From Acutalibacteraceae bacterium (lineage in GTDB: Bacteria; Bacillota; Clostridia; Oscillospirales; Acutalibacteraceae): a DNA stretch of 64,000 nt. Position 1 is the first letter of the stretch, and each line of letters starts with the position of its first letter. A program made the position numbers and the translations under genes. The stretch covers positions 3,989 to 67,988 of the forward strand of contig JAZSLR010000074.1 of NCBI GenBank assembly GCA_045535475.1, given 5' to 3'. Of this stretch, positions 1 through 6,715 are shown piece after piece. A model generated the notes under the pieces. The model did no database searches, was not told where the DNA came from, and worked only from the letters and a program-made list of their open reading frames with translations.

Positions 1-789
1 ATTATTCGGGCCTACATTGTAGCTGACTTTGCCGCCGCTGTAGTTTGTCAGGTAATCAACCTCTTTCTGGGTGAGGCTGATTGTAACTCCGCCTGCCTTG
101 TCGATAAAATCGGTAACGCCGTTGAAATCAACAACAACGAAACGCTGAATATCAAGGTCAAAAAGCTGGTTGACTGTATTGACTGCAAGTCCGACGCCAT
201 CAAACGAATAAGCGGCGTTGATTCTGTTCCATCCCCTGCCCTCGATGGGTACAAGCGAGTCACGGAGAACGGAAATCATCTTTATTGCGCCAGTTTTTTT
301 GTTATAGGACACAACAATCATTGCGTCGCTTCTGCCTCTTTCACGGGTAACGTCTCTTGAATCCGTTCCCATAACAAGAATATTTTCGATGTTGGGGTCT
401 TTCTTCGGGACTTTATATATCGGGGTTTTGCCGTAAACACTCTTTACATTTTCGTTTCTGCCGAATGATGCGTTTCTGTCAAGTCCGTCATCTATCGCAG
501 AGCCGTTTCCGCCTTGGTTTACACTGTTGGCAAGAGTTTGAGGTTCGGTGAAGTCTCTGCCGAGATCCTCTTCCCTGAGAGTAACATCCTTCCACTCTTC
601 GGGCTGAGGGTCGGTTTCGGGCACAACGTATTCATCCGTTCTTTCAACAATATCAACCTCTTCATAAGCGTTGTTATTATAGCTGATGATAAGAGGAAGA
701 GCCACACCCGCAATTGTACCGATTACAAGAACAAACGGAATAAGCAGAAGTAATGCCAATATTCTTTTTTTCTTTGATTTCTTTTCCAT
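1..789 (-). CDS. LCP (LytR-CpsA-Psr) family cell-wall glycopolymer ligase, runs off the left edge
   Basis: Not in the ORF track. Manual translation from ATG 789 gives MEKKSKKKRILALLLL (TM anchor), then NILVMGTDSRD...GRSDAMIVVS...ISVLRDSLV...RINAAY...VVVDFNG, which are LCP motifs. Confidence 0.9.
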   Translation of the reverse strand, partial: MEKKSKKKRILALLLLIPFVLVIGTIAGVALPLIISYNNNAYEEVDIVERTDEYVVPETDPQPEEWKDVTLREEDLGRDFTEPQTLANSVNQGGNGSAIDDGLDRNASFGRNENVKSVYGKTPIYKVPKKDPNIENILVMGTDSRDVTRERGRSDAMIVVSYNKKTGAIKMISVLRDSLVPIEGRGWNRINAAYSFDGVGLAVNTVNQLFDLDIQRFVVVDFNGVTDFIDKAGGVTISLTQKEVDYLTNYSGGKVSYNVGPNN

Positions 790-869
790 AAAAGCACCCG
801 TTTCGTTATAACTTTTATATATACTATGTATTTTATCATAATCTTTTAAAAAATACAATATAACAACGT

Positions 870-902
870 AAAAATGCCCACGGCGGATACCGCGGGCATT
901 TT
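870..902 (-). terminator. Rho-independent terminator after the beta-helix gene
   Basis: AAAATGCCC...GGGCATTTT hairpin with flanking A/T tracts. Confidence 0.7.
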
Positions 903-903
903 A

Positions 904-2526
904 TCAATCAAAAATAACGTATATTTCGTGCCAGAGTGTTTCGAGGATATTACGGATTGTGCGGATGAGTTTTTCGATAAAGTTTTCGCCTTTGTATTCC
1001 GTATCTGTACCCGTACCGCCGTAACAGCCGATGTTATTGCTCTGAATCGGGTTGCCGTAAAAATCCTTTTCAATTCCATCAACCGCAGCACCTGCGCCGA
1101 TAAGCGGCGAGTCTTTCGAAAGCATAAAACTGTTGACATCCGAATAATCCGTGCCGCTGAAACCGGGCACTGTATTCATTGCGTTGAGGTCAACAAGCGG
1201 AGTCATAACATTGTAATAGCAGTTATTTTCAAAGACATTTCCTCTTGACGGGTCAAGGTCATAGGCAAATGTTGCACCGTTCATGGGAACAATAATATTG
1301 TTTGCGATATATGAATTAAAGAGATTCTTGAACTGGAATTCACCGCAGTTGACAATGGTGTTGTTATAGAAGCTGAAATCGTGCTCGCCCTGCGCACCGA
1401 CTGCGGTTGTTGTGCGTCCGCCGTTATCGTTGACGGAAAGACAGTAGCGCACGGTGTTACCGTGATGGCCGCTGTGATTGGGGCAGTTGCACATAAAGCG
1501 TACATTATCGTGGGAGTAGATATACTGATAAGTGCAGTTGTGGGTGTAAGAATCGAAATCAACCGCCATACCGTCGCCGATATTCTTCTGCCCTGCTATT
1601 TCGCAATACTGAATGGTGCTGTTTCTGCTTCCCCAGAACCACATTGCGGCGGTAAAATATTCAACGTCGCCGTTTTCCAAAAGTTCCGCGCCGCCCTGGC
1701 AGCAATTGATTGAGCGACAATGGGTAACAAGCGCGCCGTCACAAATACCGACAACAACAGCCTCGGCATCCATCTCGTGGAAATAGCATTTTTCTATAAG
1801 CAGACCTTCGTTATAGATGGGGTCGATATCCTTTTCTTCGCACCAGGGTGTCTGACTGTCATTCCACGAACCCCAGATCATAAATCCGTTTCCGCAGTTA
1901 TAGACTTCGCAGTTGCTGATTGTGAGGTCATTGACGGCATATCTCGACTTTGCGGGCAGACCCTTGACTATAACCGCTGCTCTTGCGGCTGCCGCGCCGT
2001 TTGAAAAATTGTCACGGCTGTGGACTTTATAGTTCTGCATATCCTCGAAATAAACATTATCAATGACAATGCCCTCGGAGGTCTGATTATATGTATCAAT
2101 CCAGATACCGCCGCCGTTGGGTGCTTTGATATGAAGATCGGATACGGTCACATAGGAACAGTCGAAAAGCCTTAACACTTCTGTTTTGTCGTTGGTGTAA
2201 AGAATTGCCCTTTCACCTTCACCATAAGACGAAACGACTATGGGATTATCCTTTGTTCCGTTGCAGGTAAGGGTTGCGGCGCATTCGTATTCGCCGCCGT
2301 TTTTGAACAGAAAATGTGTTCCGGGTTTAATATCAAGATTTTTGAGCCCTGCAAGAGTTTTTACGGGGCTGTCAATCTCCGTTCCGCTGTTTGCATCGTC
2401 ACCGTTAACGGAATCGATATAATAATAGTTTCTGTCGGCTTGAGATGCATAAGAGAAAAATCCAACACTTCCCAAAATAACCGAAAATACCACGATGAAA
2501 CATAAAATTCTGATTGCTTTTTTCAT
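904..2526 (-). CDS. Secreted right-handed parallel beta-helix (pectin lyase fold) protein
   Basis: Signal peptide; YYIDSVNGDDANSG..SP.KTL start motif; Asn/Cys-rich beta-helix repeats (DGMAVDFD, NTVRYCLS, FYNNTIV, NNII); LSKDSPLIGAG...DFYGN motif. Confidence 0.8.
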   Translation of the reverse strand: MKKAIRILCFIVVFSVILGSVGFFSYASQADRNYYYIDSVNGDDANSGTEIDSPVKTLAGLKNLDIKPGTHFLFKNGGEYECAATLTCNGTKDNPIVVSSYGEGERAILYTNDKTEVLRLFDCSYVTVSDLHIKAPNGGGIWIDTYNQTSEGIVIDNVYFEDMQNYKVHSRDNFSNGAAAARAAVIVKGLPAKSRYAVNDLTISNCEVYNCGNGFMIWGSWNDSQTPWCEEKDIDPIYNEGLLIEKCYFHEMDAEAVVVGICDGALVTHCRSINCCQGGAELLENGDVEYFTAAMWFWGSRNSTIQYCEIAGQKNIGDGMAVDFDSYTHNCTYQYIYSHDNVRFMCNCPNHSGHHGNTVRYCLSVNDNGGRTTTAVGAQGEHDFSFYNNTIVNCGEFQFKNLFNSYIANNIIVPMNGATFAYDLDPSRGNVFENNCYYNVMTPLVDLNAMNTVPGFSGTDYSDVNSFMLSKDSPLIGAGAAVDGIEKDFYGNPIQSNNIGCYGGTGTDTEYKGENFIEKLIRTIRNILETLWHEIYVIFD

Positions 2527-2643
2527 TGATATTTCTCCTTGTTTTTATTCTTACCCGTTAATTATAAACAACATTTACAGTAAACGCAATACGCAACAAG
2601 AAAAAATATACCCGACAATGTCTTGCACATTAACCTCCCGTTT

Positions 2644-3345
2644 TCAGATTTTTGTATGATATCCGTGTGCCGCCATATTGTTTGTCGGGTATGGTGTTAG
2701 TTTAACATCATCGGGTGCCATTGCCGCCCCCATATTGTTGGGGTCTTTAATGCCGTAATCCTGAATTCTGCCTATCATAATCTTCTCAATTCTTGCCTTG
2801 GCTTCGCTTTGGGTTACCACCGCCGCACCTGCCGCTGTTGCGGTCCATTGCGCGGTAGGAGTGCGCTGACCGCCGTATTCAAGAGGCATTCTGAACTGCT
2901 TTTCTGCTGAACAGAAATGCGACGAAGTTGACGCAACGGCGGTTTCGGCTATCCTGCTGTCAACACATACAGCCGCAGCTGCAAGCGAAAGAGACATTGT
3001 TGAACACGCACCATAAAGACCCGCAAACGGAATACCCAGTTCACGTATGCCGAAGGTTGTGCCCATACATTGGTTAAGCAAATCGCCGGCAAAAATGACA
3101 TCCGCATCCTGCGGCGTTATTCCTGCTTTGGCGATTGCGCGCGAAACTGCATCTCTGTGGATAACGCTTTCCGCCTTTTCCCACGATTTTTCTCCTGCCA
3201 TTGCATCTTCATAGATGTAGTCGAATTCTCGTCCGAGAGGACCTTCCCCTTCTTTTTTGCCGACAACCGCCGCATATCCCGATATTCCCGGTGCAGACGG
3301 CAGCGACAAAGTATATTTTCCCTGCCTTACGGGCACAAACATCAC
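2644..3345 (-). pseudogene. spoVAD: Stage V sporulation protein AD, 5' fragment (homology ends at about residue 211; 22-aa unrelated tail)
   Basis: VVGKKEGEGPLG, SWEKAES, AGDLLNQC, GLYGACST, SSHFCSAEKQFRMPLEYGGQR, NNMGAAMAP, then divergence; full SpoVAD is about 335-340 aa. Confidence 0.9.
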
Positions 3346-3367
3346 CTCAATTAAAACAATTCACTCA

Positions 3368-3396
3368 TATTATCTTCAAAAAATTACAGATTATTC
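3368..3396 (-). promoter_or_regulatory. Putative forespore (SigG/SigF-type) promoter of spoVAD
   Basis: Minus strand GAATA-N17-GATAATA, close to the SigG consensus GHATR-N17/18-CATAMTA. Confidence 0.5.
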
Positions 3397-3439: not shown

Positions 3440-4687
3440 TCAGTTTTTATTCTGCTTTTTAAAATATTTCATTGCAACCAAAAGCACGCAGACACCGAGA
3501 ATCGGGAAAACTGCAGTAACAAGCATACCCGCCTTAAGTCCGACCTGCTCTGCGGCGAGGCTGAATTTTGCGCCGATATCGGCGGCGAAAGCGCTTGCTG
3601 CAACCTTGTCAACAACAATTCCGAGAAGCTGAGGAGCAACCGATGCACCAAGGTCACCGCTCGCCGCCATAAGCGCATATGCGGCAACTCCGAGACCGGG
3701 AAGATTTTCTTCCATCATAATAAGCGAACCCGGCCAGAGCATCGACGTGAAAAGTCCCGTAAAGATGCACGCAAGGAAAACAAGGATTGCGTTCGATGAA
3801 AGACCAGCAACAACATAACATACCGCCGCGCCAATCATACCGCCGAGAAGAACTCTCATTATGTTTTTGCCGAATTTTGCGTAGCTGATTCTTGCAATGC
3901 CGAGAAGAATCGCAAACATCGCCATTCCGAGGATATCGCCGAGGGCTTTATCAACGTGAAGGGCATTCTCCATAAATGTTGAAACCCAGCTTGACATTGA
4001 ATTTTCTGCACAGCTTCCGAAGAAAATCGCACCGACGCAGATTGCAAGCGCAAAAGCTCTTCTGCCCGTGCCCTTTGTTCCCTCGGAACTGTGAGTAACA
4101 TCCATATCGGGCATCGGCGAAAGCATAAACATAACCGATGCGATAATCGGCAGAAATGCCCAGAAAAGGGTGAGATACATCCAATTCTGTGTTCCGAAAA
4201 ATCTGAGGAATAAGGTGCTGACAACAACAACCGTGAACACGCCGAAGGCATAGAGCGAATGAAGAAGGCTCATATCCTTCTGCGGATTATCGGACGGAAT
4301 TGCCGCGATAACGGGGCTGAGAAGCACTTCCGAAAGACCTGCCGAAACCGAGAAAAGCACCGTTCCGATAAGCAGACCTATATATGTATTCTGCGGAAAA
4401 AGAGTCGGCGACAATGCGTAGACAAGCAGACCCGCAGAGGTAATCAGCGGCATAACCCTGACCACCTTTTTGACGTTGAAATATTTGGTGAACACAGTGA
4501 AAATGAGGTCAATTGCAAGCTGAGTGCAAAAATTTGTCAGCACGAGAGTGCCGAGAAGGGTGTACGAAATTCCGTACATATCCTGCAGCGTTGCAAAAAG
4601 CAGCGGTGGCAAACTGAAAATTGACGACATTGTGAAATATGCCGTGTAGCACGCAAGCTTGGTGCGTTTGAAATTCTTTTCTTTCAT
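3440..4687 (-). CDS. MFS transporter
   Basis: About 12 hydrophobic segments; start reassigned to ATG 4687 (MKEKNFKR) behind an AAGGAG RBS. Confidence 0.85.
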   Translation of the reverse strand: MKEKNFKRTKLACYTAYFTMSSIFSLPPLLFATLQDMYGISYTLLGTLVLTNFCTQLAIDLIFTVFTKYFNVKKVVRVMPLITSAGLLVYALSPTLFPQNTYIGLLIGTVLFSVSAGLSEVLLSPVIAAIPSDNPQKDMSLLHSLYAFGVFTVVVVSTLFLRFFGTQNWMYLTLFWAFLPIIASVMFMLSPMPDMDVTHSSEGTKGTGRRAFALAICVGAIFFGSCAENSMSSWVSTFMENALHVDKALGDILGMAMFAILLGIARISYAKFGKNIMRVLLGGMIGAAVCYVVAGLSSNAILVFLACIFTGLFTSMLWPGSLIMMEENLPGLGVAAYALMAASGDLGASVAPQLLGIVVDKVAASAFAADIGAKFSLAAEQVGLKAGMLVTAVFPILGVCVLLVAMKYFKKQNKN

Positions 4688-6274: not shown

Positions 6275-6715
6275 TCATCTCAAAAATATATAATACACAA
6301 CGCCGTAAATTACTGCAGCAAGCGTGCCGTAAACCAATACAGGGCCCGCTATTCTGAACATCTGCGCGCCCGTACCGAGGATTCTGCCCTCGCTCTGAAA
6401 TTCCATCGCAGGCGATACAATCGAATTGGCAAATCCCGTTATGGGTACAATTGTGCCCGCACCCGCATAGATGGCAATGTCATCAAAAACTCCGAGTGCC
6501 GTCAGAATCGCGGCAATCACAATCAGCGTTACGGGTATCATCAGCTTCACTTCATCCGCATCAAGACCGAGTTTTTCATAAATCATACCGAAGCCCTCAC
6601 CCAGCGCACAAATGAATCCGCCGATGATAAATGCAAAAATTCCGTTTTTGACTTTATTTGTCGGCGGCGATGCTTTTTTCGCCATTCTGCCGTATTCTCC
6701 GCCTGTTATCGCCAT
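6275..6715 (-). CDS. spoVAC: Stage V sporulation protein AC
   Basis: AFIIGGFICALG, AGAGTIVPITGFANSIVSPAMEF..EG.ILG.GAQMF.IAGPV. Confidence 0.92.
   Translation of the reverse strand: MAITGGEYGRMAKKASPPTNKVKNGIFAFIIGGFICALGEGFGMIYEKLGLDADEVKLMIPVTLIVIAAILTALGVFDDIAIYAGAGTIVPITGFANSIVSPAMEFQSEGRILGTGAQMFRIAGPVLVYGTLAAVIYGVVYYIFLR

Follow-up and report, generated by a model that had tools for sequence, protein, structure and literature searches.

The 64,000-nucleotide stretch of DNA analysed here (the window) comes from an Acutalibacteraceae genome, G000, and carries on its reverse strand the 5′ part of spoVAD, of which window positions 2704-3321 match positions 1-206 of the 329-position SpoVAD Pfam profile in a profile search (Table 1). 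With the likely start at the GTG at 3336, the stump comprises 207 codons plus the CC at 2715-2714, i.e. the first two bases of Pro208, and past the cut its frame reads 23 unrelated codons up to a stop at 2644; the conserved stump described in the initial annotation was thus recovered, its length being corrected from ~211 codons. The ribosome-binding site (RBS) and the forespore-type promoter that it had placed before the gene were both found, the promoter motif recurring at 29 of 35 split genes and at 15 of the 26 intact ones, versus 3 of 912 background windows. As also claimed there, the 3′ third of spoVAD and spoVAE lie outside the window: the former was detected on contig C74 of the same genome (profile positions 201-328, last 131 codons) and the latter on contig C10. 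The genome also has spoVAC, sigG-like, SASP, spoIVA and spoIIID genes.

When joined at the CC, the two halves yield an in-frame SpoVAD of 338 amino acids with no gaps, matching the intact SpoVAD of G004 at 310 of 338 positions (92%) and that of G076 at 304 of 338. Neither a full-length spoVAD nor a joined site was found in G000 (86% complete), in which one left arm and one right arm are present. Simple deletion was rejected by the 3′ half on C74, a second intact copy by the finding of none in G000, and misassembly because the identical left junction occurs in 38 genomes. The split thus leaves a conserved sporulation gene in two pieces with an in-frame join, as in intervening elements of the skin/gin type.

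Table 1. Features at and around the spoVAD junction in the window
Feature	Position	Strand	Basis or remark
Left end of element interior	1..2713	.	continues C8 start, C14, C151, C30, C126, C74
LCP (LytR-CpsA-Psr) polysaccharide ligase, 5′ part, cargo	1..789	-	homologue inside 6/8 complete elements
Secreted beta-helix protein, cargo, first gene after attL	904..2526	-	homologue inside 5/8 complete elements
Element arm of attL; inverted repeat of attR arm C74:2011-2033	2691..2713	-	junction alignment
Predicted -10 hexamer TAAACT; pairs with attR TTGACA (17 bp apart) in circle only	2699..2704	-	
Crossover core CC, Pro208 bases 1 and 2; partner G000:C74:2034-2035	2714..2715	-	junction alignment
5′ part of spoVAD, codons 1-207	2716..3336	-	Pfam match; purifying selection
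RBS GAGGTG of spoVAD	3343..3348	-	conserved in relatives
Predicted sigma-G-type spoVAD promoter, GAATA-N17-GATAATA	3368..3396	-	motif shared with relatives
MFS transporter, outside element here, inside in G116	3443..4687	-	gene traffic across attL
spoVAC, intact; three genes between spoVAC and spoVAD	6275..6715	-	Pfam

Distribution of the split and selection on both halves

SpoVAD was present in 100 of the 132 genomes of the genus, namely intact only in 58, split at this same codon in 41, and in G004 as an intact gene together with a 3′ half on a contig that shares coordinates with one of G073 and is probably mis-binned. The other 32 genomes had no SpoVAD match although several are 96-100% complete, a possible sporulation loss in part of the genus. 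Outside it, a family survey identified the same split boundary in 7 of 107 other genera with SpoVAD, and a recombinase-alignment scan returned 79 loci, some of which repeat genomes of the genus set, with about 18 having the spoVAD 3′ half at this boundary; the loci include records labelled Christensenella, Lachnospiraceae, Gallimonas and Ruminococcus, the closest being Acutalibacteraceae. In public sequencing runs, the best word share was 0.19 and none reached half of the G000 query words; contigs from four of the runs represented distant relatives, some spanning attL and some unsplit, the latter indistinguishable from naturally intact species, and neither an excised circle nor a rejoined gene nor a re-integration was seen.

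In eight genomes a single contig carries both halves, each time in direct orientation and at distances of 8.4, 53.9, 60.6, 62.2, 64.0, 67.2, 80.6 and 101.2 kb, and direct repeats were also found in G262, L259 and L260, outside these eight pairs. The initial annotation had proposed one end of a large gene-intervening element or an inversion; with 0 of 8 same-contig pairs in opposite orientation the inversion was rejected, and the first option stands as one end of a serine-recombinase element.

Both spoVAD halves are under purifying selection. The 39 5′ parts (over their last 195 codons) and the 40 3′ parts are all free of stop codons, and the residues conserved in intact genes were retained in 2606 of 2629 cells (5′) and 1515 of 1520 cells (3′). 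The median dN/dS of the split halves was 0.109 (5′) and 0.120 (3′) versus 0.108 and 0.152 for intact genes at a dS of ~1.25, as determined on pairs with a dS of 0.1-1.5 after nine intact loci with a motif mismatch had been dropped. Decay was rejected accordingly, and a split gene so old and so constrained must therefore give protein.

Ends, recombinase and cargo of the intervening element

The element ends have the form of serine-integrase att sites, with arms that mirror each other, attP-like, about a CC core that shows no variation at any of the 38 left or 37 right junctions; the direct orientation, short core and inverted-repeat arms are those of skin/gin-type elements. Departures from arm symmetry are conserved as well, namely TTGACA (37/37 attR), the 17-bp distance and TAnA(C/A)T, of which T, A and the last T each occur in 38 of 38 attL. 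The excised circle is therefore predicted to create a sigma-A-like promoter that is present only there, which would face the cargo in G000 and the recombinase operon in G079, G095 and G143; in these three, it should oppose re-integration since it would lead into DUF6870, the small gene upstream of the recombinase. Tn4451 is likewise said to form a promoter at its circle junction (reportedly Lyras & Rood, 2000), which here is predicted.

The element of G000 measures ~79 kb plus one gap across C8-C14-C151-C30-C126-C74, a chain composed of two exact overlaps (141 and 88 nt), two strain-variant ones (89% and 92%) and one link by synteny with G001/G031 only. Overlaps at 89-92% identity (C14/C151, C126/C74, C53 and C114) point to a strain mixture across the element. 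Contig C30 carries DUF6870 (G000:C30:189-428) and an intact large serine recombinase (G000:C30:522-2189; resolvase, recombinase, zinc-ribbon and DUF4368 domains). In all eight complete elements the recombinase lies between the halves; in G000, overlapping contigs and synteny place it inside the element. The initial annotation had regarded the adjoining DNA as ordinary and free of an integrase; its beta-helix and LCP genes are cargo of the element, and the recombinase sits tens of kb inside. Members of the recombinase clade share 60-78% identity, with the next best at 37%, and were found in 34 of the 41 split genomes plus G004 but in 0 of 58 intact-only and 0 of 32 SpoVAD-less genomes, related genomes not being independent in these counts; 7 of the 41 split genomes, one of them 96% complete, had no match. 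All 34 copies examined have an open frame and Y(I/V)RLS, with a dN/dS of 0.14. It is the sole gene in all eight complete elements at 45% identity or more, and DUF6870 is detectable in 8 of 8. G000 has three other serine recombinases; only that of C30 has counterparts in complete elements, and the C65 one is ~33% identical. Between the recombinase promoter and start, a conserved leader (G000:C30:429-521 and relatives) could pair with the RBS.

Most large elements contain a capsule/exopolysaccharide locus, LCP ligases, GH98, a sugar kinase and surface proteins. No virion, packaging or lysis families and no relaxase or type IV secretion families were detected in Pfam scans of 61, 21 and 52 proteins (55 of 87 cluster representatives scanned), PHROGs searches of 22 proteins returned integrase, Rep, Ig-domain and accessory matches only, and the six ORFs of the 8.4-kb G100 element include no relaxase; among the scanned proteins, a prophage was thus rejected, and the genes that mark an ICE or a Tn4451-type IME were not found. 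Further cargo was noted in individual elements: a Rep3 initiator with a choline (lic-type) cluster in G000 (C151:41466-48105), Rep3 being rejected as a core feature since none of the eight complete elements has it; in G001, G031, G102, G116 and G143, genes for radical-SAM, PqqD and ABC-transporter proteins next to very large surface proteins and tiny ORFs, a set that looks like a peptide-modification cluster inside the capsule region; and aspS-like, gatA and gatB genes inside the excisable segment of G116 (L077:16266-19561 and following), where the aspS-like protein shares 86-96% identity with counterparts in four further genomes and 42% with a second G116 copy.

Upstream of the intact spoVAD of G092, 37 of 49 ORFs match element genes in element order without a recombinase, and such matches were also found in G066 (11/33) and G126 (6/46), so that the cargo is for the most part resident DNA crossing attL, chiefly the capsule locus; G155, G061, G004 and G065 had none, and no att-arm remnant was seen upstream of intact spoVAD in seven genomes. 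A truncated recombinase with DUF6870 lies directly upstream of an intact spoVAD in L258 (1398-3939), possibly a stranded element. Split and intact genes are intermingled in a tree of 81 spoVAD sequences, with intact ones (G029, G076, G113 and the G092 group) nested with strong support. The recombinase and spoVAD trees of 31 genomes, compared without G015 and G115 (multiple halves) and G127 (no 5′ part), had 1 shared split and 97 conflicting pairs (Mantel r 0.10, 200 of 2000 permutations), and the trees of the two spoVAD halves largely agree (5 shared splits, 3 local conflicts). The recombinase/spoVAD conflict rejects a strictly vertical, domesticated element and thus implies repeated gain, loss or exchange.

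A candidate excision factor and its promoter

The DUF6870 gene upstream of the recombinase encodes ~80 residues from a probable start after a conserved RBS. Directly upstream of it, the pattern G(A/C)ATA-N17/18-nAnAHT(A/C), which was partly fitted to the DUF6870 alignment afterwards (last base C allowed), was found in 26 of 32 cases versus 3 of 912 background windows. A matrix derived from intact spoVAD and SASP promoters only placed 25 of 29 DUF6870 promoters among its best 5%. With a sigma-E matrix, 20 of 29 also reached that class, at lower positions, and the DUF6870 promoters lack the CATA -10 that all nine sigma-E controls have. The spoVAD promoters themselves fell into the top 5% in 32 of 38 cases by the SASP-type matrix versus 5 of 38 by the spoIVA/spoIIID-type one, the sigma-factor assignments being based on control promoters and on consensus sequences. 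With its SASP-type promoter, spoVAD differs from the usual mother-cell-gene targets. Among the recombinase-scan loci, the forespore-type motif precedes DUF6870 in 10 of 18 close versus 1 of 29 distant elements; in G079, DUF6870 begins ~45 bp past attL, within reach of the spoVAD promoter. The recombinase has a sigma-A motif, TTG(A/C)A-N16-18-TA(T/C)AAT, in 28 of 34 cases. Just before DUF6870 in G000 stands a 324-aa tyrosine-integrase-like ORF (G000:C151:50646-51617) with ~13 related loci, found in 2 of 8 complete elements.

The predicted DUF6870-recombinase complex scored 0.75 versus 0.00 for the best of three controls, a mark attained by 116 of 157 solved pairs, as against 2 of 215 mismatched ones; the runs share at least 93% of contacts, with a partner pLDDT of at least 80. 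The DUF6870 strand 57-64 is predicted to lie on the recombinase strand 528-535 with contacts at 381-414 and 496-550, that is, to bind by beta-strand addition at the DBD2/coiled-coil junction, a mode also predicted for known recombination directionality factors (RDFs) in the account consulted (PMC12286644). No solved homologue of DUF6870 was found. These models, together with the promoter motifs, make DUF6870 a candidate RDF predicted to be under sporulation control. Against this stand the DUF4368-bearing recombinases, which are mostly multi-target and TndX-like (PMC10083194), and the Tn4451 enzyme, described as working without an RDF (PMC5704250).

Proposed cycle in the forespore and comparison with known systems

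Given the split, the att sites, the direct orientation, the cognate recombinase, the in-frame join and the selection on both halves, we are very confident that spoVAD is rejoined by recombination. SpoVAD is reported to act in the spore cytoplasm (PMC9186386), and spoVAD to be under sigma-G in C. difficile and B. subtilis (PMC3789822, PMC5629000); therefore the rejoining should occur in the forespore, a location we consider likely. The reading we favour, with moderate confidence, is that a ~80-kb element comprising the recombinase, DUF6870 as excision factor and the capsule locus leaves in the forespore, rebuilds spoVAD and then re-inserts. The recombinase would be made at all times from its own sigma-A promoter and DUF6870 from one of sigma-G type that resembles the spoVAD promoter, by which excision would be limited to the late forespore. 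The circle would be retained in the non-dividing spore, and after the loss of the forespore sigma factor, the recombinase by itself would favour attP x attB and restore the integrated state with its capsule genes. The capsule locus and, in G116, the aspS-like, gatA and gatB genes make this a cargo of value to the cell, and we hold routine re-integration to be somewhat more probable than not. Failed cycles would leave intact-spoVAD lineages, and occasional transfer would carry the element between species. The seven split genomes with no recombinase match, the sigma-E matrix scores of the DUF6870 promoters and the circle promoter directed at DUF6870 in G079, G095 and G143 weigh against this reading.

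The strongest competitor, itself unlikely, keeps excision in the forespore but dispenses with restoration: cured lineages would arise, and the element would be kept by vegetative growth, by a second, unrecombined spore chromosome and by re-invasion. The intact genes nested among split ones, the discordant recombinase and spoVAD trees and the whole cargo upstream of the intact G092 gene without a recombinase fit this; yet the element is still in 41 of 100 genomes, no relaxase, conjugation or virion family was detected in scanned element proteins (most clusters), and the capsule locus would vanish from cured spores each cycle. Excision in the mother cell under sigma-E, with spoVAD expressed there in this lineage, would agree with the sigma-E matrix scores of DUF6870 promoters and with the described elements, almost all of which lie in mother-cell genes as far as the account consulted goes (PMC6957869), but the spoVAD promoters are SASP-type (32 versus 5 of 38) and SpoVAD is needed in the spore cytoplasm (PMC9186386), which makes it very improbable.

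We hold two further explanations to be slightly less probable still. The halves might be made as separate polypeptides and then assemble, with no recombination at all: all 37 attR have an in-frame TTG five codons before the Pro, with a weak GGTG upstream, and selection on both halves would be accounted for. Against this, a terminator-like hairpin with a T-run stands immediately 5′ of attR in 28 of 40 cases with no promoter before it, so that the 3′ half is apparently shut off from transcription; the att arms and recombinase are conserved over a dS of 1.25; and the unrelated tail after the 5′ part varies from 8 to 40 residues among relatives. Alternatively, excision might be unregulated or stress-triggered, good spores being made by an already-excised subpopulation, as would suit the sigma-A motif of the recombinase and the yin element of C. 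botulinum, reported as excised at all time points (PMC10747680); the forespore-type DUF6870 motif, specific to the spoVAD-targeting clade (10/18 versus 1/29), argues otherwise.

The spoVAD element thus appears to be a sporulation gene-intervening element that differs from the described mother-cell cases by its forespore target. According to the accounts consulted, those rearrangements are tolerated since the mother cell, where they take place, is doomed to die (PMC6957869, PMC4191935); excision controlled by the forespore must solve inheritance, and so tests the reversibility of developmental excision in a heritable chromosome. To the most far-reaching version we give about even chances: a reversible germ-line rearrangement in which sigma-G turns on DUF6870, a circle of up to 100 kb with the capsule locus on it leaves the chromosome, persists through dormancy and re-integrates on outgrowth, slips shuffle and exchange capsule loci among gut Clostridia, and DUF4368-type recombinases have DUF6870 as their RDF family. 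If so, common gut Clostridia would keep their capsule locus in circular form in the spore, capsules could be exchanged by this route, and DUF6870 would gain a function; the recombinase-RDF-att set is defined and assayable in E. coli.

No published account of a split spoVAD or of DUF6870 came up in literature searches, though further targets may be listed elsewhere; spoVAD is named only as cargo in the five of nine ImmeDB supplements searched (PMC6907783), the Durrant supplements contain no SpoVAD term, and the parts of the gin account consulted make no mention of spoVA (PMC5595907). Among the nearest known systems is the C. difficile skin element in sigK, for which a constitutive sigma-A recombinase, CD1231, and a sigma-E-controlled RDF, CD1234, are reported (PMC5025042). 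Both are serine-recombinase elements in a sporulation gene; skin pairs a sigma-A recombinase with a small factor (~72 aa) under a sporulation-specific promoter (PMC5025042), as is predicted for the spoVAD element; here, in contrast, the target is the forespore gene spoVAD, DUF6870 has a sigma-G-type rather than a sigma-E motif, the cargo is a capsule locus and no phage genes were found among scanned proteins. By analogy, the control layout would mirror that of skin with the compartment swapped. Tn4451/Tn4453 (TnpX) shares the DUF4368-type large serine recombinase clade and the 2-bp core, but Tn4451 is described as low-specificity, RDF-independent and relaxase-bearing (PMC5704250), whereas the present element is single-site, with a candidate RDF and no relaxase among scanned proteins. 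In SP-beta in spsM, vfbin, vrin and yin, att-site excision likewise restores a spore gene (PMC4191935, PMC6957869, PMC10747680), those elements being prophage-derived according to these accounts; since SP-beta excision was reported to be confined to the mother cell, that element need not re-integrate (PMC4191935). The gin element in gerE of B. cereus ATCC 10987 (28.6 kb, three recombinases) is likewise a non-phage island that splits a sporulation gene and brings a recombinase and a small factor (PMC5595907); unlike it, the spoVAD elements have one recombinase, span 3-101 kb, interrupt a forespore rather than a mother-cell gene and occur in many genera.
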